A DNA stretch of 64,000 bases, from contig JAZRXB010000247.1 in assembly GCA_045600005.1 (NCBI GenBank), positions 51,070 through 115,069 on the forward strand, in the 5' to 3' direction. Each line of letters starts with the position of its first letter. The first letter of the stretch is position 1. Below are positions 1 through 59,014 of this stretch, in pieces. The position numbers and the translations under genes were made by a program. The notes beneath the pieces are model-generated. The model searched no databases and was not told the DNA's origin. It was given only the letters and a program-made list of their open reading frames with translations. The stretch comes from Eubacteriales bacterium (lineage in GTDB: Bacteria > Bacillota > Clostridia > Oscillospirales > CAG-272).

Positions 1-835
1 TATGCAGCTTCCGTTCGGTCAGCAGGCTGACCAGCGCGTTTTCCAGCGAACCGGCGTCCACGCCGTAGATGTACGCGCCGACCTCGGCCGCACGGATCTT
101 TTCGATCATTTTGTCACAGAGTTCAGCGCATTCGGCTTCATTTTTCCCGCTTGCCGTGACGCGCAGCAGGACCTCTCCGTCCTTGGCGTAGGGCGCGAGC
201 GTGGGATTCGTCGAGCCGGTCATCAGATCGCGCAGCGTATCCTCGACCTTCGATTCGCCCATGCCGAAGATGTTGACGTTTTTCGAGAACAGGATGTGAT
301 CCGAGAAGCCGCGCAGATAAGGCTCGACCTCTTCTGAGAACATCGGCTCGCATTCTCTGGGCGGACCGGGCAGCAGGATGATGATCTTGCCCTTTTCCTC
401 ATCTTCAATGGCAAGTCCCGGCGCGGTGCCGTAGTTGTTTTTGAAGACGACGGCGCCTTCGGGCATCAGCGCCTGCTTTTTGTTGTTTTCGGTGATGGGA
501 TGACCGTAGCGGTTCATCCGCGCCATCATGCGGGCAAGGCTTTCCTCGTGCATATAGAGCTTCCGCCCCATCAGCCGGGCGGCGGTCTCCTTGGTCAGAT
601 CATCGTAGGTCGGACCGAGACCGCCGGTCAGGATGACGAGATCGGAGCGTTCCAGTGAGAGGGTCAGCGCGTATTCCAGCCTTGCGGGATTGTCGCCGAC
701 GACGCCCTGATAATACTGATTGATGCCGAGCGCGGCAAGCCGGCGCGAGATGAACGCCGCGTCCGTGTTGACGATATCGCCGAGCAGAAGCTCCGTTCCG
801 ACGCAGAGGATCTCGGCGCTGTTGATTTTAATCAT
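1..835 (-). CDS. cinA: CinA-family competence/damage-inducible protein (MoCF-biosynthesis-like N-domain); the 3' end runs off the window
   Basis: Absent from the ORF track because it has no stop inside the window. My own minus-strand translation from the ATG (complement of 833-835) gives MIKINSAEILCVGTELLLGDIVNTDAAFISRRLAALGINQYYQGVVGDNPARL...LTGGLGPTYDDLTKE...ILLPGPPRECEPMF, the typical CinA N-terminal signature. Confidence 0.75.
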   Translation of the reverse strand, partial: MIKINSAEILCVGTELLLGDIVNTDAAFISRRLAALGINQYYQGVVGDNPARLEYALTLSLERSDLVILTGGLGPTYDDLTKETAARLMGRKLYMHEESLARMMARMNRYGHPITENNKKQALMPEGAVVFKNNYGTAPGLAIEDEEKGKIIILLPGPPRECEPMFSEEVEPYLRGFSDHILFSKNVNIFGMGESKVEDTLRDLMTGSTNPTLAPYAKDGEVLLRVTASGKNEAECAELCDKMIEKIRAAEVGAYIYGVDAGSLENALVSLLTERKLH

Positions 836-892
836 GACGTAACACACCCGAAAGCAGAGCTTTCATGACCGGTGACGGGGCGGAGTGTCTGT

Positions 893-4100: not shown

Positions 4101-5519
4101 TTCTTTGATCAGAGAATCGCAGATCGCTTCTGCGGCGAGCTTGCCCGCGCCCATCGCGGAAATGACGGTTGCCGCGCCGGTCACGGCGTCGCCTCCGGCA
4201 TATACGCCCGCTCTGGTGGTCGCGCCGGTGGTTTCCTCCACGATGATGCCGCCGTGACGGTTGACCTCAAGTCCCGCGGTCGTCGACTTGATCAGCGGAT
4301 TCGGGGACGTGCCGATCGCCATGACCACCGTGTCGATGTCCAGCACATATTCGCTGCCCTCGACCGGAACGGGACGGCGGCGTCCGCGCTCGTCCGGCTC
4401 GCCCAGCTCCATGCGGATGCAGCGTATGCCCGTGACGCAGCCGTTTTTCGGATCGCGGCGGTCGTCGGGATTACGCCAGCCGAGGATCTCGACCGGATTG
4501 TTTAACAGAAGGAATTCGATCCCCTCTTCCATCGCGTGTTCGACCTCTTCACGGCGCGCCGGAAGCTCCTCCATCGAACGGCGGTAGATGATGAAGACCT
4601 TTTCTGCGCCCAGACGAAGCGCGGTGCGCGCCGCGTCCATGGCAACGTTGCCGCCTCCGACGACCGCGACTCTGCCGCCTTTGGAGATCGGCGTGACCGG
4701 ATCGTCCCGGTACGCCTTCATCAGATTGCTTCTGGTCAAGAACTCGTTTGCGGAATAGACGCCCTTGAGACTTTCACCCGGGATGTTCATGAAATTAGGA
4801 AGTCCTGCGCCGCTTCCGATGAAGACCGCTTCATATCCCATTTCAAACAGCTCGTCGACCGTCAGCGTTTTGCCGATGACCATGTTGGTCTCCACATCGA
4901 CGCCCATCGCTTTCAGATTGTCGACTTCCTTCTTGACGATGCTCTTGGGCAGACGGAATTCCGGGATGCCGTATACCAGCACGCCGCCCGCCGTGTGAAG
5001 CGCTTCAAAAACCGTGACCTTGAAGCCCTTCTTCGCAAGGTCGCCAGCACAGGTCAGACCGGAAGGACCGGAGCCGACGACGGCGACCCTGTGACCGTTC
5101 GGTTCGGGAACGGCGGGCGCTTCGGTCTGATGCTCGTTGTGCCAGTCGGCGACGAAGCGTTCCAGCCGGCCGATGCCGACCGGCTCGCCCTTGATGCCGC
5201 GCACGCATTTCGATTCGCACTGCGTTTCCTGCGGGCAGACCCGTCCGCAGACCGCCGGAAGCGAGGAGGTCCTGCTGATGATCTGATAAGCGCCCTCGAA
5301 ATCGCCCTCACGGATCTTTTCGATGAACGCGGGAATGTGGATATTGACCGGACAGCCCGATACGCAGGGCATATTTTTGCAGTTCAGACATCTTGCCGCT
5401 TCGTCGAGCGCGGCGGCTTCCTCATATCCCCTTGCCACTTCCTCGAAGTTGTGCGCACGGACGGCGGGGTCCTGCGTCGGCATGGGGTTCTTTTTGAGTG
5501 ACATATTCGGCTTTGCCAT
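4098..5519 (-). CDS. NADPH-dependent glutamate-synthase small-subunit-like oxidoreductase (GltD/NfnB/SudA family) with an N-terminal 2x[4Fe-4S]-type Cys region
   Basis: CLNCKNMPCVSGCP and CGRVCPQETQCESKC Cys clusters. Two Rossmann GxGxxG motifs (VAVVGSGPSGL and VAVVGGGNVAMD). C-terminal GGDAVTGAATV. No partner subunit gene is adjacent. Confidence 0.8.
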   Translation of the reverse strand: MAKPNMSLKKNPMPTQDPAVRAHNFEEVARGYEEAAALDEAARCLNCKNMPCVSGCPVNIHIPAFIEKIREGDFEGAYQIISRTSSLPAVCGRVCPQETQCESKCVRGIKGEPVGIGRLERFVADWHNEHQTEAPAVPEPNGHRVAVVGSGPSGLTCAGDLAKKGFKVTVFEALHTAGGVLVYGIPEFRLPKSIVKKEVDNLKAMGVDVETNMVIGKTLTVDELFEMGYEAVFIGSGAGLPNFMNIPGESLKGVYSANEFLTRSNLMKAYRDDPVTPISKGGRVAVVGGGNVAMDAARTALRLGAEKVFIIYRRSMEELPARREEVEHAMEEGIEFLLLNNPVEILGWRNPDDRRDPKNGCVTGIRCIRMELGEPDERGRRRPVPVEGSEYVLDIDTVVMAIGTSPNPLIKSTTAGLEVNRHGGIIVEETTGATTRAGVYAGGDAVTGAATVISAMGAGKLAAEAICDSLIKE

Positions 5520-5553
5520 GTTCTTGTCTTCTCCTTATGTTATCTCGTTTTAG

Positions 5554-5718
5554 CCGATTGTAAAACTGCGTTTTACAATCGGAACTCACGCTTATCGCCG
5601 CCGACAAAATTTGTTTTGTCGGCTCTCCTCATATCGGCGCGAGGGCTCGCCCCGGCTCGCCTTAGAGGAGTTTTTATGTCGGCAAAGCCGACATAAAAAC
5701 GGATTTTATTATAACGTT
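5554..5718 (-). repeat. composite multi-hairpin intergenic repeat, copy A (reverse complement of copy B at 40432-40620)
   Basis: By-eye alignment to rc(40432-40620) gives roughly 90 percent identity with one indel of about 23 nt. Hairpins: 5554-5582 (CGATTGTAAAAC-TGC-GTTTTACAATCG), 5600-5623 (10 bp) and 5670-5700 (14 bp perfect). Confidence 0.85.
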
Positions 5719-5778
5719 TGTCATCGCAAAGCATTAAACGATCGGCTAAGATTATATAATGAAGGAGACAATATAATA

Positions 5779-6987
5779 ATGAAGGTTCTTGTTGTAAACG
5801 CGGGAAGCTCGTCGCTGAAATATCAGCTTTTCGACCTGACGGACGGCTCCCTCATCGCAAAGGGAATCTGCGAGCGCATCGGCATCGACGGCCGGCTGAC
5901 CCACAAAATGCCGGGACGTGACGATTATAAAGCCGAGGTCCTGATGAATAACCACACTGACGCGGTAAAAGCCGTGATCGGTGCGCTGACCTCGCCCGAG
6001 ATCGGCTGCCTTTCCCGTATGGATGAGATCGAAGCGGTCGGTCATCGTGTCGTGCACGGCGGACCGTACTTCTACGAGTCGGTCCTTGTGACGGACGAGG
6101 TCGTTGAAACGCTGAAAAAATGCTACGATTTCGCGCCGCTTCACACCGGACCGCACCTGATGGGCATCGAGGGCTGCTCCGCCGCCATGCCGGGTACGCC
6201 GCAGGTGCTGGTTTTCGACACCGCGTTCCATCAGACCATGCCCGACTATGCCCGTACCTACGCGATCTCGCGTGAGCTTGCCGAAAAGTACGCCATCCGC
6301 CGCTACGGTGCGCACGGTACGTCACATCGCTTTGTCGCGGGCGAAATGTGCCGGATCTTGGGGCGCACCGAGGGAACGAAGATCGTCACCTGCCATCTCG
6401 GCAGCGGCTCGTCGATCTCTGCGGTGAAGGACGGAAAGGTACTCGATACGTCGATGGGCTTCACGCCGCTCGACGGGCTGGAAATGGGGACCCGCTGCGG
6501 TTCGATCGACCCGGCGATCGTTCCGTTCATCATGGAACGGGAGGGCTATTCACCCGCGCAGATGAGCGAATATCTGAACCGCGACTGCGGTCTTATGGGC
6601 GTGTCGGGACTGTCCTCCGACTGCCGCGACCTCGGTGAAGCCGTGCTGGCAGGCAATGAGAGGGCAAAGCTCGCCGTGAACATCCTGACCTATCAGATCA
6701 GAAAGTATATCGGCGCGTATGCCGCCGCGATGAACGGATTGGATGCGCTCGTCTTCACCGCCGGCATCGGCGAAAACCGGAACGAGATCCGCGCCGCCGC
6801 CTGTGACGGACTCGGTTTCCTCGGCATCCGCCTCGACCCGGAGATCAACGCGAAGACCCGTCTGCAATCGAATATCGTGAAGATCTCGGCAGAGGATTCC
6901 CGCGTGCCGGTCTATGTCATCCCCACTAATGAAGAGCTGGTCATCGCGCGCGACACCGAACGCATCGTGCGCGGTCTTTCCCGGTAA
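5779..6987 (+). CDS. ackA: acetate kinase
   Basis: MKVLVVNAGSSSLKYQLF at the N-terminus, then VGHRVVHGG, FDTAFHQTMP, RRYGAHGTSH and the C-terminal IPTNEELVIARD. GAAGGAG SD at 5761-5767. The ORF-track start 5611 adds repeat-derived sequence. Confidence 0.95.
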   Translation: MKVLVVNAGSSSLKYQLFDLTDGSLIAKGICERIGIDGRLTHKMPGRDDYKAEVLMNNHTDAVKAVIGALTSPEIGCLSRMDEIEAVGHRVVHGGPYFYESVLVTDEVVETLKKCYDFAPLHTGPHLMGIEGCSAAMPGTPQVLVFDTAFHQTMPDYARTYAISRELAEKYAIRRYGAHGTSHRFVAGEMCRILGRTEGTKIVTCHLGSGSSISAVKDGKVLDTSMGFTPLDGLEMGTRCGSIDPAIVPFIMEREGYSPAQMSEYLNRDCGLMGVSGLSSDCRDLGEAVLAGNERAKLAVNILTYQIRKYIGAYAAAMNGLDALVFTAGIGENRNEIRAAACDGLGFLGIRLDPEINAKTRLQSNIVKISAEDSRVPVYVIPTNEELVIARDTERIVRGLSR

Positions 6988-21221: not shown

Positions 21222-21254
21222 GAAAACAGAACATTCGGACTGTTATGGAGAGAG

Positions 21255-21274
21255 ATTGAAAACAGGTTTTCAAT
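21255..21274. promoter_or_regulatory. LacI-type operator candidate, perfect palindrome ATTGAAAAC-AG-GTTTTCAAT
   Basis: 9-bp perfect arms. The core TGAAAACAGGTTTTCA fits the LacI/CcpA operator pattern TGnAAnCGnTTnCA. The half-site TGAAAACAG recurs at 21221-21229, directly after the -10. Confidence 0.6.
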
Positions 21275-21344
21275 CCTCGTATTGCGGCTTTCACTGCCGG
21301 AACGGCGGCGAGAACCTCAAATCCGATGAAAGGTGGTCATAAGC

Positions 21345-25285: not shown

Positions 25286-27628
25286 ATGATTACCAAGATA
25301 GTCAAAAGAGACGGACGGGAAGTCCCGTTTAATATAGAGAAGATCGCCAACGCCATTTTCAAGGCGGCTCAGGCTGTCGGCGGGCGCGATTACAGCATCG
25401 CGCTTGATCTGGCGTGCCAGGTCGCCAATGAGCTGGAAAAGGAGATCGGCGAAAACGGAAAGCCTACCGTGGAGCAGATCCAGGATATGGTCGAAAAGGT
25501 GCTTGTCACCAACGGTCATGCCCGCACCGCAAAGGAATACATCCTGTACCGTGCCGAACGCACCCGCGTCCGCGACATGAACTCGCGTTTAATGAAAACC
25601 TACGAGGACCTGACCTTCAAGTCCGCGAAGGATTCCAACATCAAGCGTGAAAACGCCAACATCAACGGCGACACCGCGATGGGTACGATGCTCAAGTACG
25701 GCTCCGAAGGCGCGAAGCAGTTCTATGAGATGTACGTCCTCGACCCGATGCACGCCAAGGCGCACCATGACGGCGACATCCACATTCACGACCTTGACTT
25801 CCTGACGCTGACCACCACCTGCTGCCAGATCGACATTCTCAGGCTGTTTGAAGGCGGCTTCTCCACCGGACACGGCTTCCTTCGCACGCCGAACGACATC
25901 GCAAGCTATTCGGCGCTCGCCTGCATCGCCATCCAGTCGAACCAGAACGATCAGCACGGCGGACAGAGCATCCCGAACTTCGAGTACGGCATGGCGCCCG
26001 GCGTCAAGAAGACCTATAAAAAGAACTACCGTAAGAATCTCGCCAAGGCGATCGACCTTCTGTGCGGCGACGCCGACGCGGAAAAGACCGTGACCGGACT
26101 GCTCGAAGCGGTCGAAAAAGAAACCGGCATGATCCCGACCCTCGCCGAGAACATTACGTTTGACGAAGCCGTCATCGAAAAGCTCACCGCAGCCTACGGC
26201 GCGGAAAAAGCCGCAAAATTCAGCGCATTCGCCCGCAGATACGCAGTCTCCGAGACCGAGCGCGCCACCTATCAGGCGATGGAAGCGCTGGTCCACAACC
26301 TGAACACCATGCACTCCCGCGCGGGTGCGCAGATCCCGTTCAGCTCGCTGAACTACGGCATGGACACCTCTCCCGAAGGACGTCTGGTCATGAAGAGCAT
26401 TCTGCTTGCGACCGACGCCGGACTCGGCAACGGCGAAACGCCGATCTTCCCGATCCAGATCTTCAAGGTCAAGGAAGGCGTCAACTACAATCCCGGCGAC
26501 CCGAACTACGACCTGTTCAAGCTGGCGTGCCGCGTTTCCGCCAAGCGTCTGTTCCCGAACTTCTCGTTCATCGACGCGCCGTACAACCTCCGTTATTACA
26601 AGGAAGGTCATCCCGAGACCGAAGTCGCGTACATGGGCTGCCGTACCCGCGTGATCGCCAACAACTACGACCCCGCCCGCGAGACGGTTTACGGACGCGG
26701 AAACCTCAGCTTCACGTCGATCAACCTGCCGCGCCTCGGCATCAACGCGAAGGGCAGCGTCGACGTCTTCTTCGAGAGCCTTGACCGCGAGATCGCTCTC
26801 GTCATCGATCAGCTGCTCGACCGCTTCAAGATCCAGAGCGAAAAGACCGTGCGCAACTACCCGTTCCTGATGGGTCAGGGCGTATGGCTCGATTCCGAAA
26901 AGCTCGGCATCGACGACAAGGTGGGCGAGGTGCTCAAGCATGGTACGCTGACCGTCGGCTTTATCGGTCTGGCTGAGTGCCTGAAAGCGCTCATCGGCAA
27001 GCATCACGGCGAATCCGAAGAAGCACAGCAGCTCGGTCTTGAGATCGTCGGCTTCATACGCAGACGCACCGACGAGGCAAGCAAGAAGTACGGTCTGAAC
27101 TTCTCGGTCATCGGCACCCCTGCCGAGGGTCTGTCCGGACGTTTCGTCCGCATCGACAAGAAAAAGTTCGGCGAGCTTCCGGGCATCACCGACCGCGAAT
27201 ATTACACGAACTCCTTCCATATCCCGGTTTACTATGAGATCTCCGCAGCAGACAAGATCCGTCTGGAAGCGCCTTACCACGAGCTGACCAACGGCGGTCA
27301 CATCACCTACGTCGAGCTGGACGGCGATCCGCTTGAAAATCTGGACGCATTTGAATCGGTCATCCGCTGCATGAAGGAAGCGGGCGTCGGCTACGGTTCG
27401 ATCAACCATCCGGTCGACCGCGACCCGGTCTGCGGCTTCACCGGCATCATCGGAAACGAATGCCCCTGCTGCCACCGCACCGAAGCGGACGGAAAGGGCA
27501 AGTTTGAGCGCATCCGCCGCATCACCGGTTATCTGGTCGGCACGCTCGACAGCTTCAACGACGCAAAGCGCGCCGAGGTCGAAGACCGCGTGAAGCATTC
27601 GGTCAGAACGCAGCTTGATGAGCTTTAA
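25286..27628 (+). CDS. nrdD: anaerobic ribonucleoside-triphosphate reductase (class III)
   Basis: N-terminal ATP-cone (ITKIVKRDGREVPFNIEKI), a C-terminal Zn ribbon (CGFTGIIGNECPCC) and the glycyl-radical motif RRITGYLVG. Confidence 0.95.
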   Translation: MITKIVKRDGREVPFNIEKIANAIFKAAQAVGGRDYSIALDLACQVANELEKEIGENGKPTVEQIQDMVEKVLVTNGHARTAKEYILYRAERTRVRDMNSRLMKTYEDLTFKSAKDSNIKRENANINGDTAMGTMLKYGSEGAKQFYEMYVLDPMHAKAHHDGDIHIHDLDFLTLTTTCCQIDILRLFEGGFSTGHGFLRTPNDIASYSALACIAIQSNQNDQHGGQSIPNFEYGMAPGVKKTYKKNYRKNLAKAIDLLCGDADAEKTVTGLLEAVEKETGMIPTLAENITFDEAVIEKLTAAYGAEKAAKFSAFARRYAVSETERATYQAMEALVHNLNTMHSRAGAQIPFSSLNYGMDTSPEGRLVMKSILLATDAGLGNGETPIFPIQIFKVKEGVNYNPGDPNYDLFKLACRVSAKRLFPNFSFIDAPYNLRYYKEGHPETEVAYMGCRTRVIANNYDPARETVYGRGNLSFTSINLPRLGINAKGSVDVFFESLDREIALVIDQLLDRFKIQSEKTVRNYPFLMGQGVWLDSEKLGIDDKVGEVLKHGTLTVGFIGLAECLKALIGKHHGESEEAQQLGLEIVGFIRRRTDEASKKYGLNFSVIGTPAEGLSGRFVRIDKKKFGELPGITDREYYTNSFHIPVYYEISAADKIRLEAPYHELTNGGHITYVELDGDPLENLDAFESVIRCMKEAGVGYGSINHPVDRDPVCGFTGIIGNECPCCHRTEADGKGKFERIRRITGYLVGTLDSFNDAKRAEVEDRVKHSVRTQLDEL

Positions 27629-27706: not shown

Positions 27707-27756
27707 GCATCTCGCAGGATGAATCCACAGAGCTGTGGATTCATCCTGCGAGATGC
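27707..27756. repeat. 23-bp perfect inverted repeat (hairpin or cruciform)
   Basis: GCATCTCGCAGGATGAATCCACA-GAGC-TGTGGATTCATCCTGCGAGATGC. No T-tract follows. It lies between the nrdD terminator and the fucosidase promoter. Confidence 0.9.
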
Positions 27757-27864: not shown

Positions 27865-27929
27865 GACGGCAGGATCCGGCAATGCAGGACTGTGCCGGCA
27901 GACTGATACGGAAAGGCAGACGCTTGATC

Positions 27930-29298: not shown

Positions 29299-30795
29299 AT
29301 GAATATTCGCATTGACGCAGAAAAAGCGGTCAGACCGCTTCATAATTTCTGGAACCACATCCATTTTCATCCGACCGACGCGATCGAGGACGACTGGGGA
29401 CGCCGGATCCTCGATCAGGTCGCAGCCGATCACGCCGCGATCACCGTTCGGATGTACACCATGATGGAGGATATCGTCTCGATGGACGCGGACGGTCGGC
29501 TCCATTATGATTTCACGCTCAACGACACCCGCATCGACTATATGCTCGAAAAGGGCTTCCGTCTGCTGCTGTCCTACAACTTCATTCCGCCCTGCATCGC
29601 AGCGAAGGACGATGAGGTCAGCGTCGTCGCCAAGAACGGGACCCGCTATAAGGGCAAGTTCATCGTCACCGCGCCGCCGAAGGACTATAAGCTGTGGGAA
29701 GAGATCTGCTATCAGTATACGAAGCACATCGTGGAGCGCTACGGGCTTGACGAGGTGAAGAACTGGTTCCTCGGCTGCTTCAACGAGCCGGACTGCACGA
29801 GCTTCTGGATGAAGGACGAGAAAAATCTCGAAGTCCGCGCCGCCGAATACTGTAAGCTGTACGACGCCTTTGAAGCGGGTCTTCGCCGCGTGGACACGGG
29901 GCTGTGCATCGGCGGACCGGTCGTTTCGGGCAATATGCCGTTCCTTGAACTGTTCTTGAAGCATACCAGCGAGACCGGAAAACAGCTCTCGTTCCTGTCG
30001 TTCCACACCTACGGCACGAATCCGTTCAGGATCAACAGCGGCGAGAAGCCGATCTGCGTGCAGAACACCGTCCCGATCGTCGAGGAAACGCGCAGACTGG
30101 CGGTGAAGTACGGCTATGAGGACACGCCGCTGGTCATCGACGAGTGGGGCGCTTCGTCGCACGGCTTCTACAACATCGAGGAATGCCCGGTCTTCCTGTT
30201 CCGCGAGAACGAGATCTACTCGGCTTATTACGCAAAGCTCATCGCAAAGTATGTCGAGATGGATCTGCCGATCGACCGCATGATGATCTGTCTGTCCGGT
30301 CAGCACGAGATGAAGGTGGACTTCTCCGGCTTCCGCAACTTCTTCACGCTGAATTTCTACCGCAAGCCGATCTACAATGCGTACTGTCTCGGCGCGAAGC
30401 TCGGCGATACGCTTCTGCCGGCGGAGGGAAAGACCGGCGAGGAGCTTTCGATCCTGCCGACCCGTTCGGCGGACGGACGGATCAGCGTGATGCTCGCCTA
30501 TGCGTCGGAGCATTTCGACGAAGCGCTCGCGGACCTCGACGTTTCGCTGGAGATCGCCGGTCTGAACGGGACCTATCGGAAGGTCGTTTCGGTCATTGAC
30601 AGGACCCGTTCCAACGCGATCGACCGTTATTACGAGCTTGGTTCTCCCGACACGCCGAACGAAGAACAGATCGCGCAGATCCGCCGCGCCGGCGAGATCG
30701 TCAGCGAGGAGAGCGTCTGTCGCGCAGGCGAGAAGCTGAACGTCACGATGACGAACAACGGGACGGTTCTGGTCGAGCTGATCCCGGTCGCGTAA
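29299..30795 (+). CDS. clan GH-A glycoside hydrolase, GH39-like
   Basis: LGCFNEPD (acid/base Glu of the NEP motif) and LVIDEWGAS (nucleophile Glu). The size and layout look like GH39. No signal peptide. Confidence 0.55.
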   Translation: MNIRIDAEKAVRPLHNFWNHIHFHPTDAIEDDWGRRILDQVAADHAAITVRMYTMMEDIVSMDADGRLHYDFTLNDTRIDYMLEKGFRLLLSYNFIPPCIAAKDDEVSVVAKNGTRYKGKFIVTAPPKDYKLWEEICYQYTKHIVERYGLDEVKNWFLGCFNEPDCTSFWMKDEKNLEVRAAEYCKLYDAFEAGLRRVDTGLCIGGPVVSGNMPFLELFLKHTSETGKQLSFLSFHTYGTNPFRINSGEKPICVQNTVPIVEETRRLAVKYGYEDTPLVIDEWGASSHGFYNIEECPVFLFRENEIYSAYYAKLIAKYVEMDLPIDRMMICLSGQHEMKVDFSGFRNFFTLNFYRKPIYNAYCLGAKLGDTLLPAEGKTGEELSILPTRSADGRISVMLAYASEHFDEALADLDVSLEIAGLNGTYRKVVSVIDRTRSNAIDRYYELGSPDTPNEEQIAQIRRAGEIVSEESVCRAGEKLNVTMTNNGTVLVELIPVA

Positions 30796-30811
30796 GGCTT
30801 TTCAAACGAAG

Positions 30812-30897
30812 TCCCCTGCCGCGCAGGATATCCCCGTCGGGCAGAGTTCCCGGCGGGGATATCCTGCGCTGCGTGGGATTTCCCGCGCGGCAGGGGA
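30812..30897 (+). other. GC-rich three-way structured element: a 9-bp outer stem enclosing a 21-bp hairpin and a 7-bp hairpin
   Basis: The large hairpin at 30821-30869 has 16 perfect bp plus 5 more (one is T.G). The second hairpin is at 30871-30888. The outer stem pairs 30812-30820 with 30889-30897. The T.G positions pair only in the plus-strand RNA. Confidence 0.7.
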
Positions 30898-35067: not shown

Positions 35068-37464
35068 ATGAATTTATCGCTTGAATGGGCTAACGATTTC
35101 GTCGATCTCGGCGGAATCACGGCAAAAGAATACTGCGACCGTATGACCGCGACCGGTTCCAAGGTCGAAGGCTTTGAAATCCTCGGCGAGGACATTGAAA
35201 ACGTCATCGTCGGCAGGGTCCTGTCTCTGGAACGTCACCCCGATTCCGACCATCTCTGGGTCTGTCAGATCGACTTCGGCGAGGAAACCCCGACGCAGAT
35301 CGTGACCGGCGCACAGAATCTGTTCGTCGGCGCGCTCGTCCCGGCAGCAAAGGCTCCGGCGAAGCTTCCCGGCGGCGTGACCATCAAGGCGGGCAAGCTG
35401 CGCGGCGTTCCGTCCAACGGCATGATGTGCTCCATCGGCGAGCTGAATCTGACCACGCACGATATGCCGGGCGCGTGCGAGGACGGCATCTTCATTCTGA
35501 ACGATTTCAACTGCAAGCCGGGCGACGACATCCGCGACGTGCTGAAGCTCTCCGACACCGTCGTTGAGTTCGAGATCACCTCCAACCGTCCGGACTGCCT
35601 GTCGGTCATCGGTCTGGCGCGCGAGTCCGCCGTTTCGTTCGAGAAGAAGTTCACGCTTCCGAAGCCGGTCGTCACCTTTGCGAAGGACGGCGATAAGATC
35701 GAAAACTATCTTTCGGTCGACGTGGCTGCCGACGCGAAGCTCTGCCCGCGCTATACCGCCCGCGTGGTCAAGAACGTGAAGATCGGTCCGTCTCCGCTCT
35801 GGATGAGGATGCGTCTGCGCGCGTCCGGCGTCCGTCCGATCAACAACATCGTCGATATCACGAACTATGTCATGCTCGAATACGGTCAGCCGATGCACGC
35901 CTTTGACTACGCCTGCCTCGACGGAAGCAAAATCATCGTCCGCCTTGCCGAAAACGGCGAGACCTTCAAGTCGCTGGACGACACCGATCACGTCCTGAAG
36001 GACACCAACCTTGTTATTGCCGACGAAAAGAAGGCGGTCGCTCTGGCAGGCGTCATGGGCGGCGCGAACAGCGAGATCAAGGACGGCACGACGACGGTCG
36101 TCTTCGAGAGCGCCAACTTCCTCGGCAGCTCGGTCCGCGTTACCGCCAAGAGCCAGGGTATGCGCACCGAAAGCTCGGGACGCTTCGAGAAGGGGCTTGA
36201 CCCCGAAAACACGATGCCGGCAGTCGACCGCGCGTGCGAGCTGGTCACGCTGCTCAGCGCGGGCGAAGTGGTCGAAGGCACGATCGACGTCTACAAGGGC
36301 AGAGAAGAGCCCTATAAGATGAAGCTCGAAGCCGACCGCATCAACGCCTTCCTCGGTCTGAACGTCAGCGCGGACTACATGAAGGAAGTCCTGAAAAAGC
36401 TCGAATTCGAGATCGACGGCGACACGCTGACCGTTCCGTCCTTCCGCGCGGACTGCCGCTGCATGAACGATATCGCGGAGGAGATCCTGCGCATTTACGG
36501 CTACAACACCATCGAAGCGACGAAATTCGTCACGCCGATCACCTCCGGCAGCCGCACGCCGGTCCAGAAGTTTGAGCTTCTCTGCGCCGAAACGCTCTGC
36601 GCGATGGGACTTTACGAGTGCGAGACCTTCTCGTTCATCAGCCCGAAATACTACGACCGGATCGGTCTTGCCGAAGACGACCCGCGCCGCAAATCCATCG
36701 TCATCTCCAACCCGCTCGGCGAGGATACCAGCGTCATGCGCACGACCGCCATTCCGTCGATGCTCGAGGTCCTGGCGCGCAACAACAACTATCACGCCGA
36801 AAAGACCGCTCTGTTCGAGCTGGCGAAGGTCTATCTGCCCGACAGCGACCCGGACAAGCTCCCGGACGAGCGCCGTCAGATCGTCATCGGCTTCTTCCGC
36901 GGCGGCGATTTCTATACGCTCAAGGGAATTTGCGATCAGCTGCTCGGCAAAGCGGGCGTGACGGTGAATTATGTCGCCGAATCGAACGACCCGACCTTCC
37001 ATCCCGGACGCTGTGCAAAGCTCGTCTGCGAAGACGGCACGGTCATCGGAACGATCGGTCAGATCCATCCGAACGTAGCGGCGAACTATGCCATCGAGGA
37101 AGCGGTCTATGTCGCCAACCTCGATTTCGAGGATCTGTTCGCAAAGGCTGACCTTACCAAGCACTTCACGGCTCTGCCGAAGTTCCCGGCGATCACGCGC
37201 GATTTCGCATTCGTCTGCGACGACGCGCTGGAGGTCGGCGCGATCGAAGCCGTCATGAAGAAAGCGGGCGGCAAGACGGTCGAAGCAGTCAAGCTGTTCG
37301 ACGTGTACCGCGGCAAGCAGCTCGGCGAGGGCAAGAAGAGCGTCGCGTTCAACGTCATGCTCCGCGCCGCCGATCACACGCTGACCGACGAGGAAGCGGA
37401 CAAGGCAACGAAGAAGATCCTCACCCTGCTCGACCGCGAGCTGGGCATCACGCTGCGCGCGTAA
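35068..37464 (+). CDS. pheT: phenylalanine--tRNA ligase beta subunit
   Basis: N-terminal tRNA-binding domain (VVGRVLSLERHPDSDHLWVCQIDFG), B3/4 and B5 regions, and a C-terminal FDX-ACB domain (FDVYRGKQLGEGKKSVAF). Confidence 0.97.
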   Translation: MNLSLEWANDFVDLGGITAKEYCDRMTATGSKVEGFEILGEDIENVIVGRVLSLERHPDSDHLWVCQIDFGEETPTQIVTGAQNLFVGALVPAAKAPAKLPGGVTIKAGKLRGVPSNGMMCSIGELNLTTHDMPGACEDGIFILNDFNCKPGDDIRDVLKLSDTVVEFEITSNRPDCLSVIGLARESAVSFEKKFTLPKPVVTFAKDGDKIENYLSVDVAADAKLCPRYTARVVKNVKIGPSPLWMRMRLRASGVRPINNIVDITNYVMLEYGQPMHAFDYACLDGSKIIVRLAENGETFKSLDDTDHVLKDTNLVIADEKKAVALAGVMGGANSEIKDGTTTVVFESANFLGSSVRVTAKSQGMRTESSGRFEKGLDPENTMPAVDRACELVTLLSAGEVVEGTIDVYKGREEPYKMKLEADRINAFLGLNVSADYMKEVLKKLEFEIDGDTLTVPSFRADCRCMNDIAEEILRIYGYNTIEATKFVTPITSGSRTPVQKFELLCAETLCAMGLYECETFSFISPKYYDRIGLAEDDPRRKSIVISNPLGEDTSVMRTTAIPSMLEVLARNNNYHAEKTALFELAKVYLPDSDPDKLPDERRQIVIGFFRGGDFYTLKGICDQLLGKAGVTVNYVAESNDPTFHPGRCAKLVCEDGTVIGTIGQIHPNVAANYAIEEAVYVANLDFEDLFAKADLTKHFTALPKFPAITRDFAFVCDDALEVGAIEAVMKKAGGKTVEAVKLFDVYRGKQLGEGKKSVAFNVMLRAADHTLTDEEADKATKKILTLLDRELGITLRA

Positions 37465-37530: not shown

Positions 37531-37567
37531 ATAGTCGATTGTAAAACTTCGTTTTACAATCGACTAT
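37531..37567. repeat. solo copy of the CGATTGTAAAAC-N3-GTTTTACAATCG palindrome (arms extended to 17 bp)
   Basis: ATAGTCGATTGTAAAAC-TTC-GTTTTACAATCGACTAT. The core ends 31 nt before the ATG at 37594. Confidence 0.9.
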
Positions 37568-39379: not shown

Positions 39380-39672
39380 TAGAGGATAGCAGAAAGGCTG
39401 TGAGCGGAAGGATACCGCGCAGACCGGTTACAGAGAATCGCGCCCCGGAAACGGGTGGTGAAAGCGCGCCGAGAGGTACGGTAAGAAGTGCGTCCGTGAG
39501 CCGTTCCGGTGAAGGTCAGTAGCCGGTTCCGTGCGCTTCACGTTACAGGAGCGGGAGATATCCGTCCTGCCGTTTTACGGCGGCGAAGGTCTCCGATGAG
39601 AACCAAAATAAAGTGGAACCGCGTCTCTGCCGCCTTTATGGATCCTTGCGATCGGGGGCGTTTTTTGTTTTA
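39380..39672 (+). promoter_or_regulatory. T-box leader, Cys-specific
   Basis: AGAGA at about 39432, distal GGTGGTGAAAG, and the specifier context GAAG-UGC-G with UGC at 39489-39491. The T-box sequence AAATAAAGTGGAACCGCG is at about 39606-39623. The element ends in GGGGGCGTTTTTTGTTTT. Confidence 0.8.
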
Positions 39673-39684
39673 CAGGAGGTTTTG

Positions 39685-40413
39685 ATGGGACGAAACGTCA
39701 TGGACGATCTCGAAAAACTGAAAAAGGGCGCCGTGCGCGCGAAAAACGAGATCGTCAACGATATTAAGGTCATCCGGGAACGCGACCCGGCAGCGACCAG
39801 CGACATTGAGGTGGCGCTGCTCTATTCGGGCTTTCACGCCCTGCTCGCCTATCGTGTGTCGCACAAATTCTACGAAAAGCAGCATTATTTCACCGCCCGC
39901 ATGATCAGTCAGGGCGCGCGCTTTCTGACCGGCATCGAGATCCATCCCGGCGCGAAGATCGGAAAAGGGCTGTTCATCGACCACGGCAGCGGCGTCGTCA
40001 TCGGCGAAACGGCGGAGATCGGCGACAACTGTACCCTGTATCAGGGCGTGACCCTCGGCGGTACGGGAAAGCACGTCGGCAAGCGTCACCCCACGCTGGG
40101 CGACAACGTGATGGTCGGTTCGGGCGCGAAGGTTCTCGGACCCTTCCGCGTCGGCGACAACACGAAGATCGCGGCGGGCGCGGTCGTTCTCGCCGAGATC
40201 CCGGACAACTGCACGGCGGTCGGCATCCCGGCCAGAGTCGTGAAGCGCAACAATCAGAAGATCGAAAACGACCTCGATCAGGTCCACATTCCCGACCCGG
40301 TCGCGCAGGAGCTCTGCCGCATGAGCGCCCGCATCGACGAGCTGGAAGCCCGGCTGAAAATCGCCGAGGAAGCAAAAGATCGATCGGATACGAATCAAAA
40401 CAGCCGTTTGTAA
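39685..40413 (+). CDS. cysE: serine O-acetyltransferase
   Basis: ERDPAATSDIEVALLYSGFHALLAYRVSH N-domain and hexapeptide repeats (IHPGAKIGKGLFIDHGSGVVIGETAEIGDNCTLYQGVTLGG). AGGAGG SD at 39674-39679. Confidence 0.9.
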   Translation: MGRNVMDDLEKLKKGAVRAKNEIVNDIKVIRERDPAATSDIEVALLYSGFHALLAYRVSHKFYEKQHYFTARMISQGARFLTGIEIHPGAKIGKGLFIDHGSGVVIGETAEIGDNCTLYQGVTLGGTGKHVGKRHPTLGDNVMVGSGAKVLGPFRVGDNTKIAAGAVVLAEIPDNCTAVGIPARVVKRNNQKIENDLDQVHIPDPVAQELCRMSARIDELEARLKIAEEAKDRSDTNQNSRL

Positions 40414-40431
40414 AAATGGTTTAAGATGATG

Positions 40432-40620
40432 AACGTTATAATAAAATCCGTTTTTATGTCGGCTTTGCCGACATAAAAACCCCTCTAAGGCGAGCAAAGC
40501 GAGCCCTCGCGCCGATATGGGGAGAGCCGACAAAACAAAGTTTTGTCGGCGGGCAAAAACGTAGTTTTTGTCTGCGGCGATAAGCGCGAGTACCGATTGT
40601 AAAACGAAGTTTTACAATCG
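40432..40620 (+). repeat. composite multi-hairpin intergenic repeat, copy B (between cysE and cysS)
   Basis: Hairpins at 40450-40480 (14 bp perfect), 40526-40550 (10 bp), 40549-40575 (12 bp with 2 G.U; this module is absent from copy A) and 40594-40620 (CGATTGTAAAAC-GAA-GTTTTACAATCG). Confidence 0.85.
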
Positions 40621-40653
40621 ATTAATACGAATCAAACGGAAGGAGAATGATCC

Positions 40654-42167: not shown

Positions 42168-43001
42168 ATGAAGAAAATTCTTTCGCTTATCTTAGCGGTT
42201 TCCATGCTCGCTCTCGCGCTCGCATCCTGCGGCGGCAGCGGCAAGGTCAAAGTCATCGAGGTCGAGCTGACCCAGGAACAGTACGCATTCGGCGTTGACA
42301 AGGCACAGCCTGAGCTGCTTGACAAGGTCAACAGCATCATCAAGGAGATCAAGAGCAACGGCAAGTTTGACGAGATCTGCAACAAGTACTTCGGCGACGG
42401 CACGCCCACGCCGGTCCCGTCCGCAAAGCTCGACACCTCCAAGGATCAGTTCATCGTTGCGACCAACGCAGCATTCGAGCCGTTTGAATATATGGACGGC
42501 GAAAACTACCTCGGCATCGATATGGAGATCGCAAAGCTCATCGCCGACGAGCTCGGTCAGGAGCTGGTCATCAGCAACATGGATTTCGACGCCGTCTGCC
42601 TCTCCGTCGGTCAGCATAAGTGCGACATCGCCATGGCCGGTCTGACCATCAAGCCCGACCGCGAAGAATATGTCGCTTTCTCCGATTCCTATTACAACGC
42701 AGCACAGAAGATCATCGTCAAGGCTGACGACACCGCTTTTGACGCCTGCAAGACCGCTGAAGACGTAGAAGCAGTTCTCGCTTCCTTCGATGCGACTACC
42801 ACCATTGGCGTACAGAACGGCACGACCGGACAGTTCTATGTTGAGGGCGACGAGAGCTGGGGCTTCGCCGGCTTTGCAACCTCGATGAAGGGCTACAAGA
42901 ACGGTTCGCTGGCTGTTCAGGACCTTCTCAACGGCAACATTCAGTATGTCATCATCGACTCCGCTCCGGCAGCCTGCATCGCAAAGGCGTACAACGGCTG
43001 A
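42168..43001 (+). CDS. amino-acid ABC transporter substrate-binding lipoprotein
   Basis: Lipobox LALASCGG, and type-3 SBP blocks (FEPFEYMDGENYLGIDMEIAKLIADELG and DIAMAGLTIKPDR). Confidence 0.85.
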   Translation: MKKILSLILAVSMLALALASCGGSGKVKVIEVELTQEQYAFGVDKAQPELLDKVNSIIKEIKSNGKFDEICNKYFGDGTPTPVPSAKLDTSKDQFIVATNAAFEPFEYMDGENYLGIDMEIAKLIADELGQELVISNMDFDAVCLSVGQHKCDIAMAGLTIKPDREEYVAFSDSYYNAAQKIIVKADDTAFDACKTAEDVEAVLASFDATTTIGVQNGTTGQFYVEGDESWGFAGFATSMKGYKNGSLAVQDLLNGNIQYVIIDSAPAACIAKAYNG

Positions 43002-55633: not shown

Positions 55634-55779
55634 GTGAATGTACAGGAAAAACCTCTCCGGGATATGCTGATCAGACCGGGCTTCCGGCGGAAAAAATCCT
55701 GTCATTGATTGGATTTTTTCAAAGCGGTCTTATTTGGCGTTCCCTGACCGGCTGAATATTCACAAAAGGAGAACTGATC

Positions 55780-57234
55780 ATGGCAAACAGCAAAATGCGC
55801 GTTTCCACCCTGCTTCTGGCTGCTCTGACGGCTGCGCAGACGCTCGCATCCTGCGGCGGCTCCGGCGGCACGACCGACACCCAGACGCCCGTTACCGGCG
55901 CGCCCGAAGAAAACAAACCCGTTTACTTCACCGACGCTCTCGGCGATATCAGCTTTGAGGGCGAGACCTTCACGCTCTATCGCGGCTGCCCGGTCGGCTA
56001 CTATATCATGGAGGAGGAGACCGGCGATATTCTGGACGACTCCATCTTCCTTCGCAACCGTCTCGTGGAGGAACGTCTCGGCATCACCCTCGACTACGTT
56101 GAATGCGCATTCAAGAGCGACGGCGGCAGTCAGGCGGAAGCGACCTCGACGATTCAGAGCTTCATCATGGCGGGCGACGACACCAACGATATTTATATCC
56201 ACGTTCAGCATACCGGTATGCCGGGTCTGATCGCGCAGGGCTGCTTCGTCAACTGGCGCACGGTCCCGAACCTCGATCTGACGCAGGACTACTGGTACCA
56301 GAGATGCCTTGACGATATCAACTATTACGACAAGGTGTTCGCCATGACCGGCGCGTACAACCTGACCTCTCTGAACGGCGCGAACTGCCTGTACTTCAAT
56401 AAGAACATCTGCGACGATCTCAAGATGGACTATCCTTACCAGATGGTTCTGGACGGCAAGTGGGTGTACGATAAATTCTACGACATGAGCAAGGCTGCCA
56501 CCATCGACGTCAACGGCGACGGCAAGATCGACGTGGACAACGACCAGATCGGCTACTACGGCTGGGGCTACGAACAGTATCCCGGCTTCTTCATGGGCAT
56601 GGGCGGCGACGTCGTTCTCAAGAAGGCGGACGGTTCTCCCGAGCTGAACATCAACAACGACCGCACGGTCGAGCTGATCGAGAAAATGAACAGGTTCTTC
56701 GCGCTGGAAGGCTCGAAGGTCGAATGGACCACCTACGGCATCATTCAGCCGAAGTTTGAAGCGGGCGAGGTCCTGTTCTATCACACCGGTCTGAATGCCG
56801 CTACCGGTCTGCGCGACATGGAAGACGACTTCGGCTTCATCCCGTATCCGAAGCTAAACGAGGCGCAGGACGGCTACCGCTGCCGCGTTCAGAACACGAC
56901 CTGCTTAACCTATATCCCTGTCACCAACAATCACCTTGACTTCACGGGCGCAGTCCTTGAAGTCCTCGCATCCTGCTCGTTCAATACTGTCGTTCCGGCA
57001 TTCTTCGATACGGTTCTTACCGTCAAGTCTTCCCGTGACACCGAGTCCGAGCAGATGATCCCGGTCATCCGCGACGCCTGCGCGTTCAACGACGAAGCCG
57101 CTACCGGCTTCTCGGTCAGAAACGCAGTCGACTCCGGCGGACTTGCCTCCTACTGGGCAGGCGTCGAAGCGACCGTTAAGGACGCCGTTCAGAAGAACAT
57201 CATCGACGTTTACGGTCCGGATTCCAAATTCTGA
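55780..57234 (+). CDS. extracellular solute-binding lipoprotein (large sugar-type ABC SBP), paralog 1
   Basis: Lipobox TLASCGGSG and the typical IMAGDDTNDIY block. An EF-hand/dockerin-like loop DVNGDGKIDVDND. No permease or ATPase gene nearby. Confidence 0.7.
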   Translation: MANSKMRVSTLLLAALTAAQTLASCGGSGGTTDTQTPVTGAPEENKPVYFTDALGDISFEGETFTLYRGCPVGYYIMEEETGDILDDSIFLRNRLVEERLGITLDYVECAFKSDGGSQAEATSTIQSFIMAGDDTNDIYIHVQHTGMPGLIAQGCFVNWRTVPNLDLTQDYWYQRCLDDINYYDKVFAMTGAYNLTSLNGANCLYFNKNICDDLKMDYPYQMVLDGKWVYDKFYDMSKAATIDVNGDGKIDVDNDQIGYYGWGYEQYPGFFMGMGGDVVLKKADGSPELNINNDRTVELIEKMNRFFALEGSKVEWTTYGIIQPKFEAGEVLFYHTGLNAATGLRDMEDDFGFIPYPKLNEAQDGYRCRVQNTTCLTYIPVTNNHLDFTGAVLEVLASCSFNTVVPAFFDTVLTVKSSRDTESEQMIPVIRDACAFNDEAATGFSVRNAVDSGGLASYWAGVEATVKDAVQKNIIDVYGPDSKF

Positions 57235-57477: not shown

Positions 57478-57559
57478 ATCCTTGTGTAAAGAGATTTGTG
57501 CTTCACACAGATTTCCGGTTTTCGCAAATACGAAAATAATTCAGAAAGGAAAGTTAATC

Positions 57560-59014
57560 ATGGCAAACAGCAAAATGCGCGTTTCCACGCTGCTTCTGGC
57601 TGCTCTGATGGCAGCGCAGACGCTCGCATCCTGCGGCGGCTCCGGCAGCACGACTGACACTCAGGCTCCTGTGACCAATGCACCCGAAGAAGACAAGCCT
57701 GTCTACTTCACCGACAGTCTCGGCGACATCCGTTTTGACGGCGAGACCTTCACACTCTACCGCGGCTATCCGACCGGCTCCTATATCATGGAAGAAGAAA
57801 CCGGCGATATCCTCGACGACTCCATCTTCCTGCGCAACCGTCTCGTTGAAGAGCGTCTTGGCATCACCCTCGACTACGTTGAGTGCAACTTCAAGACCGA
57901 CGGTTCCAGCCAGTCTGAAGCAACCTCCACGATCTCGAGCTTCATCATGGCAGGCGACGACACCAACGACGTTTATGTCCACGTTCAGCACACCGGTATG
58001 CCGGGTCTGATCGCACAGGGCTGCTTCGTCAACTGGCGCACGGTTCCGAACCTCGACCTGTCTCAGGATTACTGGTATCAGAGATGCCTTGACGACATCA
58101 ACTACTACGACAAGGTATTCGCCATGACCGGCGCTTACAACCTGTCCTCCCTGACCGGCGCAAACTGCCTGTACTTCAACAAGAACATCTGCGACGACCT
58201 CAAGATGGACTATCCTTATCAGGATGTTCTGGACGGCAAGTGGATCTATGACAAGTTCTATGACATGACCAAGGCTGCTACCATCGACGTCAACGGCGAC
58301 GGCAAGATCGACGTTGACAACGACCAGCTCGGTTACTTCGGCTGGGGCTACGAACAGTATCCCGGCTTCTTCATGGGCATGGGCGGCGACTCCGTTCTGA
58401 AGAAGGCTGACGGTTCTCCCGAACTGAACATCAACAACGACCGCACCATCGAGCTTGTCGAAAAGATGAACAAGTTCTTCCAGCTGGAAGGCTCGAAGGT
58501 CGAATGGACCACCTACGGCATCATTCAGCCGAAGTTCTCGGCAGGTGAGTGCCTGTTCTACCACACCGGTCTGTCCGCTGCTACCAGTCTGCGCGACATG
58601 GAAGACGACTTCGGCTTCATTCCGTATCCGAAGCTCAACGAGGCTCAGGAAGGCTATCGCTGCCGTGTTCAGAACACGACCTGCTTAACCTATATCCCGG
58701 TCACCAACAATCACCTTGACTTCACGGGCGCTGTCCTTGAAGTCCTCGCATCCTGCTCGTACAACACTGTCGTTCCGGCATTCTTCGATACCGTTCTTAC
58801 CGTCAAGTCTTCCCGTGATACCGAGTCCGAGCTGATGGTTCCGGTCATCCGCGAAGCCTGCGCATTCAATGACGAAGCGATCAGCGGCTTTGCCATCAGA
58901 AACGCTGTCGACTCCGGCGGACTTGCTTCCTACTGGGCAGGTGTTGAAAACACCGTTAAGGATTCCCTCCAGAAGAACATCATCGACGTTTACGGTCCGG
59001 ATTCCAAGCTCTGA
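57560..59014 (+). CDS. extracellular solute-binding lipoprotein, paralog 2 (tandem duplicate of 55780-57234)
   Basis: Same length class and collinear sequence: identical MANSKMRVSTLLLAAL...TLASCGGSG, with most blocks conserved to the C-terminal IIDVYGPDSK. Confidence 0.7.
   Translation: MANSKMRVSTLLLAALMAAQTLASCGGSGSTTDTQAPVTNAPEEDKPVYFTDSLGDIRFDGETFTLYRGYPTGSYIMEEETGDILDDSIFLRNRLVEERLGITLDYVECNFKTDGSSQSEATSTISSFIMAGDDTNDVYVHVQHTGMPGLIAQGCFVNWRTVPNLDLSQDYWYQRCLDDINYYDKVFAMTGAYNLSSLTGANCLYFNKNICDDLKMDYPYQDVLDGKWIYDKFYDMTKAATIDVNGDGKIDVDNDQLGYFGWGYEQYPGFFMGMGGDSVLKKADGSPELNINNDRTIELVEKMNKFFQLEGSKVEWTTYGIIQPKFSAGECLFYHTGLSAATSLRDMEDDFGFIPYPKLNEAQEGYRCRVQNTTCLTYIPVTNNHLDFTGAVLEVLASCSYNTVVPAFFDTVLTVKSSRDTESELMVPVIREACAFNDEAISGFAIRNAVDSGGLASYWAGVENTVKDSLQKNIIDVYGPDSKL

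Follow-up and report, generated by a model that had tools for sequence, protein, structure and literature searches.

A probable family of non-autonomous mobile elements inserted just upstream of ribosome-binding sites in uncultured Clostridia

Bacterial MITEs are small, A/T-rich elements that end in terminal inverted repeats (TIRs), duplicate their target, and are highly base-paired (PMC3049150). The repeat family described here shares much with them: a length of about 200 bp, the lack of an open reading frame, TIRs, target duplications, many copies, strong predicted structure, the existence of deletion derivatives, and insertion beside genes. However, many bacterial MITEs generate TA or 2–9 bp duplications, whereas those of the present family are approximately 12 bp. 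The present family also differs in its asymmetric ends, with an extra inner arm on the right, in a 5-bp phase relative to AAGGAG, and in that a parent IS was not found.

Closest in architecture are the BOX elements of Streptococcus pneumoniae, which consist of boxA, a variable number of boxB units, and boxC (PMC3049150). BOX elements occur in the 5ʹ and 3ʹ regions of operons; formerly suspected to be regulatory, they are now considered parasitic (PMC3049150). Their likeness to the present family lies in a modular build with an internal hairpin of variable tandem number (two H3 hairpins in one of the copies below, copy B), in being folded when transcribed, and in residing in both the 5ʹ and 3ʹ regions of operons. 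There is no sequence similarity between the two, and the present family has duplications of 10–15 bp and a defined target phase. Closest in genomic behavior are the Correia elements (CREE/NEMIS) of Neisseria (PMC3049150). Like the present family, Correia elements are short, bounded by TIRs, located near gene starts, and equipped with promoter-like hexamers at their ends (here TACAAT); they are transcribed into hairpin RNA. Correia elements, however, have 26-bp TIRs and a TA duplication, as opposed to TIRs of 16–17 nt and a duplication of about 12 bp here, and experiments have demonstrated promoter and RNase III effects for them. It differs from both BOX and Correia elements in sequence, in the 12-bp duplication, in the asymmetric right end, and in its phasing to the ribosome-binding site (RBS).

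Two further groups of elements bear comparison. IS4-family elements and cassettes (IS4, IS231/MIC231) produce target duplications of 10–13 bp and have a sequence-dependent target preference. Both traits are alike in the present family, but the terminal repeats are not demonstrably related and no IS4-type transposase was found here. The REP/BIME and REPIN–RAYT systems likewise consist of extragenic palindromic units that form composites, occur in many copies, and often lie at the 3ʹ ends of genes. REP and REPIN hairpins have a conserved 5ʹ GTAG-type tetranucleotide and, to our knowledge, REPs and IS200/IS605 elements neither duplicate their target on insertion nor carry terminal inverted repeats.

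The window, that is, the whole 64-kb stretch of DNA that was analyzed, contains two long copies of the family, mutually inverted, and one solo palindrome. The pattern CGATTGTAAAAC-N3-GTTTTACAATCG (27 nt), counted in the window and in 100 shuffles, has exactly three matches, at 5555, 37536, and 40594, with 0 expected from the shuffles. The original prediction placed the long copies at 5554–5718 and 40432–40620. Both are real, but these spans are too short, and the true extents are 5551–5748 (copy A) and 40401–40624 (copy B). The parts of the three elements are as follows.

40401..40624, plus strand: copy B, full element of 224 nt from left terminal repeat to right terminus, with boundaries given by the TIR and the flanking duplication
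40388..40399, plus strand: left target-site duplication of copy B, ATACGAATCAAA, the same 12-mer at both ends, within the 3ʹ end of cysE
40401..40417, plus strand: left terminal inverted repeat of copy B, CAGCCGTTTGTAAAAAT
40450..40480, plus strand: hairpin H1 of copy B, a 14-bp stem closed by a 3-nt loop
40526..40575, plus strand: hairpin H3 of copy B (40526–40550) and its tandem duplicate (40551–40575)
40594..40624, plus strand: right end of copy B, comprising inner arm, GAA loop, and outer arm (right TIR with terminus ATTA)
40625..40636, plus strand: right target-site duplication of copy B, ATACGAATCAAA, the same 12-mer as on the left
5551..5748, minus strand: copy A, full element of 198 nt (nhmmer family profile, E = 3.5e-38)
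5732..5748, minus strand: degenerate left repeat of copy A, TAGCCGATCGTTTAATG
5670..5700, minus strand: hairpin H1 of copy A, 14 bp
5601..5624, minus strand: hairpin H3 of copy A, GCCGACAAAA/TTTTGTCGGC
5555..5581, minus strand: right-end palindrome of copy A, loop GCA on the minus strand
37532..37566, strand not assigned: solo element, a back-to-back pair of terminal repeats, TAGTCGATTGTAAAAC-TTC-GTTTTACAATCGACTA

Copy B is matched by the nhmmer family profile at 40402–40623 (E = 2e-39). Mean column identity between copies A and B is 87% in an alignment that includes the flanks and 89–96% inside the repeat blocks, which agrees with an early estimate of roughly 90%; copies elsewhere are 70–80% identical to these two. 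An extra module is indeed confined to copy B, although it measures 26 nt (40540–40565) rather than about 23. This insertion repeats hairpin H3 in tandem, giving copy B two H3 units where the remaining family members have a single one. The individual hairpins of the original prediction were all located: the 14-bp hairpin at 5670–5700 and 40450–40480, the GCCGACAAAA/TTTTGTCGGC hairpin at 5601–5624 and 40526–40550, and the extra hairpin of copy B, with two G.T pairs, at 40551–40575. The solo palindrome has the expected 17-nt arms, at 37531–37567. Folding of the two long copies against shuffled sequences gave z = -6.5 and -6.2.

Copy A separates two divergent genes, a gltD-like gene (start codon at 5519, minus strand) and ackA (start codon at 5779); its absence would leave the two start codons only some 60 nt apart. 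Pfam identifies these neighbors as a gltD-like Fer4_20/Pyr_redox_2 protein and an acetate kinase. Copy B is flanked by a hexapeptide acetyltransferase (cysE-like) and CysS, and the solo palindrome by PheT upstream and a GH43 protein. Specifically, the solo element is found between the pheT terminator hairpin and the GH43 gene (ATG at 37594), with GGAG 15 nt past its right end. The gaps of 35, 33, and 31 nt claimed between palindrome and ATG agree with the coordinates. Also as foreseen, the repeats create open reading frames at 5611–6987 and 39670–40533. The former is a false upstream extension of ackA, whose actual start is 5779, as a recorded 402-aa product with 100% identity shows, and the latter is antisense to cysE. 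A search for tRNA and tmRNA found none.

The full copies are bounded by terminal inverted repeats of 16–17 nt (TAGCCRATTGTAAAA). Across 52 oriented copies, TAGCCGATTGTAAAAGT at the left end is the inverse of ...TTTTACAATTGGCTA at the right end; the left-end motif, which amounts to the inverse of the outer palindrome arm plus a GGCTA tail, lies 170–225 nt from the palindrome, and aligned similarity stops there. The "terminal palindrome" is the right repeat preceded by its own inner inverted copy (a 12-bp palindrome). Flanking direct repeats scoring at least 9 accompany 24 of 40 full copies, compared with 3.4% of shuffled flank pairs. These target duplications are 10–15 bp long (mode 12), are 80% A+T, and differ at every site. 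In the flanks of copy A, a target duplication was looked for and none was seen, and none is visible at the solo element (37532–37566). The ends and footprints are those of a transposon; it is from the footprints only that mobility would follow.

Some solo copies have a flanking duplication of their own (for example, TATCGGTATAT at locus L086), and at two orthologous sites the solo state in one species corresponds to the composite state in its sister (L042 and L088 versus L059; L033 versus L029). The left repeat and the inner arm are mutual direct repeats. Deletion between them would be the simplest route from the full element to the solo form and is most likely how solo palindromes arise. In diverged palindromes (L072, position 1782; L074, position 6417), changes are symmetric in both arms, and complementarity is retained.

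The clearest view of an insertion comes from the cysE–cysS junction. In L094 and L096, which are the closest CysS relatives on usable contigs (CysS 85–86% identical), cysE ends 5 nt (L094) or 19 nt (L096) before cysS and there is no element; the corresponding gap in the window is 240 nt. The left TIR of copy B encodes the last four cysE codons and the TAA stop (40411–40413), such that the translation ends in ...DTNQNSRL* with the last four residues of the CysE C-terminus (...DTNQ|NSRL*) encoded by the element. On the other side, the right duplication is followed by cggaa, then GGAG (40642–40645), and then the cysS ATG at 40654. In-silico removal of the element and one duplication yields gat acg aat caa acg gaa gga gaa TGA tcc ATG. 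Such an overlapping junction is normal for an operon and resembles the junctions of the relatives. Because removal restores the junction and the site is empty in relatives, copy B is an insertion into the end of cysE.

For copy A, an empty site was sought in 80 metagenome loci (gltD-like protein query, 68–86% identity), none of which had the element or a nearby ackA; the long-contig sequence nearest to AckA is flanked by other genes, and the gltD-like/ackA adjacency is preserved in no relative examined. Copy A may stem from recombination between two copies at different loci, in which case both the missing duplication and the unique adjacency would follow.

Many gut Clostridia carry the family. 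A scan of 185,579 species-representative genomes with the pattern ATTGTAAAAC-N3-GTTTTACAAT found the palindrome in at least 93 stretches from at least 29 species-level MAG assemblies. Among the matches listed, almost all carriers are MAGs of uncultured Clostridia, Eubacteriales, or Oscillospiraceae whose source is a ruminant or other gut, and single MAGs hold from at least 8 to at least 11 loci, the 64-kb window alone having three copies. In 78 of 97 palindrome matches, the same conserved flank (...GGCGGCGATAAGCGCGCG, sometimes followed by a CCCCGCCGCGCGGG hairpin) is present on one side only; the unit is therefore polar. Elements are 153–226 nt in size and non-coding, and the only open reading frames in them are false extensions of the genes alongside. 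The interior of a second subfamily (JAGAVJ01) is unrelated, but its ends, flanking duplications, and phasing are the same.

The Rfam 15 gathering scan of the whole window returned 0 matches, and an E-value scan of copy B returned noise only. Copy B had no BLAST match in the plasmid and phage collections, and the palindrome is absent from the viral contigs scanned. Four exact matches to the left repeat in viral contigs were dismissed as chance, as their contexts are unrelated and they have no partner repeat. Literature searches yielded nothing specific on such a MITE in Clostridia or Oscillospiraceae, nor on Shine-Dalgarno-targeted insertion.

The placement of the elements relative to genes was determined with a simple self-trained codon-usage ORF scorer, not a validated gene finder, with starts refined by Shine-Dalgarno motifs. 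Where the right end faces a start codon, the distance is 16–33 nt in 23 of 30 cases; where it faces a stop codon, the distance is -13 to +8 nt in 28 of 33; and where the left end faces a start codon, the distance is 13–33 nt in 13 of 21. The stop codon at the right end is supplied by the terminal repeat, as TAG in one frame and TAA in a second. An element end lies no more than 35 nt from a start codon in 45 of 60 elements, compared with 12% of intergenic positions and 17% of A/T-rich ones under the null. The claim of a composite multi-hairpin repeat family with an end at a near-constant distance from start codons is right.

Orientation, in contrast, follows no rule. Gene contexts are tandem-antisense (29), tandem-sense (15), divergent (12), and convergent (4). 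Of 40 full copies, 15 have a Shine-Dalgarno-like motif 11–22 nt past the right end, 16 have one past the left end, 1 has one past each end, and 8 have none at these distances, against a background of 11% per side. As the RBS adjoins the right end about as often (15) as the left (16), orientation to the adjacent gene is random. The original prediction held that a plain MITE-like repeat would be randomly placed as well as randomly oriented; the census shows the random orientation (15 right, 16 left) but a strongly non-random placement. The neighboring genes are functionally unrelated (cysS, gltD-like, ackA, GH43, and many others).

The non-random placement takes the form of a fixed phase. Phasing was determined at 22 reconstructed sites with clear duplications, and in 20 of these, the duplicated target lies 5 bp upstream of an AAGGAG motif. 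Downstream of the duplication, the sequence reads NNaAA-GGAG in fixed phase, and positions +6 to +9 are G, G, A, and G in 19, 18, 19, and 17 of 21 oriented flanks, respectively. All three copies in the window fit this phase, with GGAG beginning 15–17 nt past the relevant ends. For copy A, GGAG lies 16 nt beyond the right end (5534–5531, gltD-like) and also 15 nt beyond the left end (5764–5767, ackA). The near-constant distance to the ATG exists because insertion is phased just upstream of the RBS: the 31–35 nt are made up of the 4-nt terminus, the 12-nt duplication, 5 nt, the Shine-Dalgarno motif, and the spacer to the ATG.

Judged from these flanks, the phase 5 bp upstream of AAGGAG is best taken to mean that the transposition machinery chooses its target site in this way. 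Selection alone would hardly yield a fixed 5-bp phase, as every position in a 5ʹ UTR ought to be tolerable, and target recognition is favored on this ground. The target preference is possibly symmetric, with AAGGAG as one half-site. Selection rather than target recognition could in principle contribute to the phasing.

We consider it highly probable, from the ends, duplications, and phase just described, that the family is a non-coding, non-autonomous mobile element (MITE) that inserts just upstream of an RBS in either orientation. The structural features of MITEs (PMC3049150) are all present save an identified parent IS. The family is apparently an undescribed one, with the 5-bp Shine-Dalgarno phase and the covarying interior as its unusual features. 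In the proposed mechanism, a putative transposase supplied in trans would cut an A/T-rich target with a stagger of about 12 bp, producing the 10–15 bp duplication. The edge of the target would be chosen 5 bp upstream of AAGGAG, the Shine-Dalgarno motif of the local gene, with the element inserting either way around. Because of this target phasing, element ends would come to lie 13–33 nt before start codons and, at operon junctions, within the last codons of the upstream gene. In the latter case, the terminal repeat would provide the stop codon of the upstream gene, TAG in one frame and TAA in a second. The interior is built of interchangeable hairpin modules, namely H1, the long-range GC helix around H3, and an optional GC hairpin. 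We infer a DDE-type cut-and-paste or copy mechanism, and the insertions may affect expression of cysS, the gltD-like gene, ackA, or the GH43 gene. The duplication size, taken by itself, suggests an IS4-like relation.

Searches for the enzyme itself were negative. No transposase gene bounded by the element's repeats was present in 0.73 Mb of loci or in the plasmid, phage, and viral collections. Only two inverted-repeat pairs 0.4–6 kb apart occur in all loci (0.73 Mb), and neither is an autonomous element: the pair at L087 involves an orphan half-arm beside an ordinary gene, and the pair in the window is merely the solo element and copy B. An all-against-all megablast of the loci returned orthologous regions only, with no multi-copy segment besides the element.

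A more specific version of the MITE reading is tentative and, on balance, doubtful: that the machinery reads the Shine-Dalgarno motif in DNA and positions its staggered 12-bp cut precisely 5 bp before AAGGAG, whichever way round the element lands. If true, this would be an RBS-aimed transposon that splits operon junctions and 5ʹ UTRs and leaves genes intact, whose terminal repeats bring two-frame stop codons and an outward TACAAT at each end, and whose folded interior is kept by constant transcription or by a single-stranded intermediate. The enzyme would then be an undescribed or unrecognised transposase.

The interior of the element is folded, and the fold is conserved. RNAalifold, applied to an alignment of 26 copies from different species, predicts H1, a small hairpin, a long-range GC helix around H3, and the terminal hairpin. 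Paired cells amount to 96.6%, and compensatory changes occur in 18 of 48 pairs; shuffled alignments give 7.2 +/- 1.6 such pairs (0 of 500 reach 18), and alignments with the partners slid give 3–6. As the compensatory changes exceed these controls, the single-strand fold is conserved. Moreover, where orthologous copies have flanks 84–94% identical between species, the element is at least as conserved as adjacent coding DNA. Strand asymmetry was dropped as proof of an RNA role. On the palindrome-3ʹ strand, G.U pairs outnumber A.C mismatches by 22 to 3 in one alignment, with 16 from one column, and by about 37 to 15 in a second, where two columns contribute 18. The excess, most of it from two alignment columns, is suggestive only.

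The covarying interior suggests some selection on the folded single strand, beyond the need of a purely selfish DNA transposon. Several causes are possible. The fold may be kept since transcription almost always covers the element and copies are harmless only when they fold compactly, through a host-beneficial role in RNA stability, processing, or termination, or through a single-stranded transposition intermediate.

H1 followed by GGATTTTATT, read right to left, was flagged as terminator-like in a consensus scan, on the minus strand in copy B and on the plus strand towards ackA in copy A. Its U-tract is interrupted and set off from the GC core by an A/U-rich lower stem, and the terminal palindrome is without a U-tract. 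As a terminator, H1 is probably weak and not efficient because 29 copies sit in the right-to-left direction between closely spaced tandem genes. An outward-facing TACAAT is located 7–12 nt from each terminus with no good -35 hexamer alongside; by its sequence it could serve as a -10 element. A promoter consensus scan of copy B found none. Around copy A, promoter-like hexamer pairs are present only over the two start-codon regions and would read through the whole element. An internal TATAAT-like box was rejected as a clear promoter, since it has no -35 at sigma-70 spacing and is the T-rich tail of H1 on the opposite strand.

In the cis-acting RNA leader first proposed, the hairpins, chiefly the terminal one 5ʹ of the Shine-Dalgarno motif, would control mRNA stability, processing, or translation. 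Such a role is very unlikely, although it would account for the strong fold (z -6.2 to -6.5), for the 18 of 48 pairs with compensatory changes (7.2 in shuffles, 3–6 in slid controls), for the excess of G.U over A.C on the sense strand, and for the retention of orthologous copies across species. Transcription of copy B and of copies at many loci is likewise required, since these lie within former operon junctions. The RBS, however, is found beside the hairpin-less left end (16) as often as beside the palindrome end (15), the neighboring genes are functionally unrelated, and the second subfamily keeps the same placement with a wholly different interior; target duplications, the empty site, and the want of an Rfam match speak against a leader as well. 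Of the RNA-level structure originally proposed, the single-strand fold is backed by covariation, while the argument from G.U pairs is weak, the excess being mostly from two alignment columns. An operator at the DNA level, with the perfect 12-bp palindrome as the site of a dimeric regulator for the genes just downstream, is exceedingly unlikely. Many copies per genome lie beside unrelated genes and abut stop codons as often as start codons, and the palindrome is the end of an element with target duplications. An operator would fit the perfect arms with variable loops, as well as the position of the palindrome between a possible promoter region and the start codon at the three window loci, but the symmetric two-arm changes (L072, L074) fit a hairpin or arm-to-arm copying, not half-site conservation. 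The likeness to a LacI-type operator at 21255, also cited in favor, is partial: the palindrome at 21254–21275 has one different base in each arm, another arm length, and another spacer, and it is not matched by the family profile. Both proposed roles, leader RNA and operator, give way to the TIRs, the site-specific duplications, and the empty site in relatives, and the family does not qualify for either because its orientation is random and its neighbors are unrelated.

A third reading keeps mobility and changes the machinery: a repeat of REP/BIME or REPIN type, mobilized by a RAYT or by an IS200/IS605-type single-strand (Y1) transposase that recognizes hairpins in DNA. We regard this as very unlikely. 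The family is hairpin-rich, modular, extragenic, and present in many copies, a TAG is conserved beside the hairpin foot, and its structure covaries as expected for a single-stranded DNA hairpin substrate. Nevertheless, 10–15 bp duplications accompany 60% of full copies, the termini are mutually inverted, and the terminal motif is TAGCC, not GTAG; with target duplications and TIRs present, the family falls outside both REP/REPIN and IS200/IS605 elements.

The MITE reading bears chiefly on annotation and on the interpretation of repeats near genes; the finding opens no long-standing question. The family accounts for spurious ORF extensions (5611–6987), for the element-coded C-terminus of CysE, and for overlong intra-operon gaps in many rumen and gut Clostridia MAGs. 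It also serves as a warning that a constant distance to start codons is not proof of regulation. As a natural case of motif-phased target choice, it may be usable as a tool if the transposase is found. For the bacteria that carry the family, insertion 5 bp upstream of a Shine-Dalgarno motif would repeatedly place a highly structured 200-nt RNA between genes and their promoters or operon partners, and would thereby offer ready regulatory variation.

Not every palindrome in the window belongs to the repeat family, a ~200-base non-coding MITE. The features considered here are as follows.

Window 21254-21275: perfect palindrome, GATTGAAAAC-AG-GTTTTCAATC, separate from the repeat family
Window 27707-27756: perfect inverted repeat, GCATCTCGCAGGATGAATCCACAG / CTGTGGATTCATCCTGCGAGATGC, whose 24-nt arms are 2 nt apart
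Window 30808-30882: GC-rich 34-nt inverted repeat, 85% complementary, with a 7-nt spacer
Window 35074-37377, minus strand: 767-aa open reading frame (ORF), antisense to pheT (35068-37464)
Window 55765-56064 and 57545-57844: 300-nt direct repeat, 86% identity

Membership of the family was ruled out for the palindrome at 21254-21275 because the family profile, an nhmmer profile of the element, fails to match it. The palindrome is located ~45 nt downstream of a promoter-like TTGACA...TAAGCT pair and upstream of an ORF starting at 21333, and looks like a LacI-family-type operator. The perfect inverted repeat at 27707-27756 is intergenic, between a gene end at 27628 and a gene start at 27882; for a terminator stem, it is unusually long. 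The GC-rich repeat at 30808-30882 directly follows a gene ending at 30795 and may be a terminator or a different type of repeat. The direct repeat covers the 5ʹ ends of tandem paralogous genes (55780-57234 and 57482-59014), and both contain a segment, CGCTCGCATCCTGCGGCGGC, that occurs again at 42217.

The 767-aa ORF, which lies opposite the 798-aa pheT, was rejected as a real gene by the self-trained codon scorer and is therefore a shadow ORF, typical at such GC content. The ORF at 39670-40533, antisense to cysE, is likewise a shadow ORF.

The gene that opens the window (1-847, minus strand) has homologues adjoining an element in two other MAGs (L029 568-1352 and L033 5497-6281; ~64% nucleotide identity to window 30-820); at the window's own copy of this gene, the element is absent. 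In one relative (L097 2501-4618), a CysS-like product of 705 aa contains two each of the tRNA-synt_1e, DALR_2 and CysS_C domains; part of the gene may have been duplicated in tandem, or the assembly may be at fault.

A second subfamily of the element is found in the MAG JAGAVJ01 (loci L006, L032, L045 and L063). It shares with the main family the terminal repeats, the palindrome at the right end and the duplications on either side; its interior is wholly unlike, with different hairpins and a 30-nt module, GACTTAATACGTCGGACGTATTAAGTC, that is optional. A decayed copy is probably represented by a leftover at another locus.

L087 6040-6065: orphan half-arm, CGACTGTTTTACAATCGAATA

This half-arm directly follows a terminator hairpin and precedes a start codon 25 nt downstream.

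The exact family palindrome is also present in an archaeal (Methanosarcinales) MAG (L055 3312-3334); there, the absence of the family flanks points to chance or contamination. Complete family flanks accompany the exact palindrome in a MAG of Selenomonadaceae (L008/L066), suggesting horizontal spread or mis-binning.
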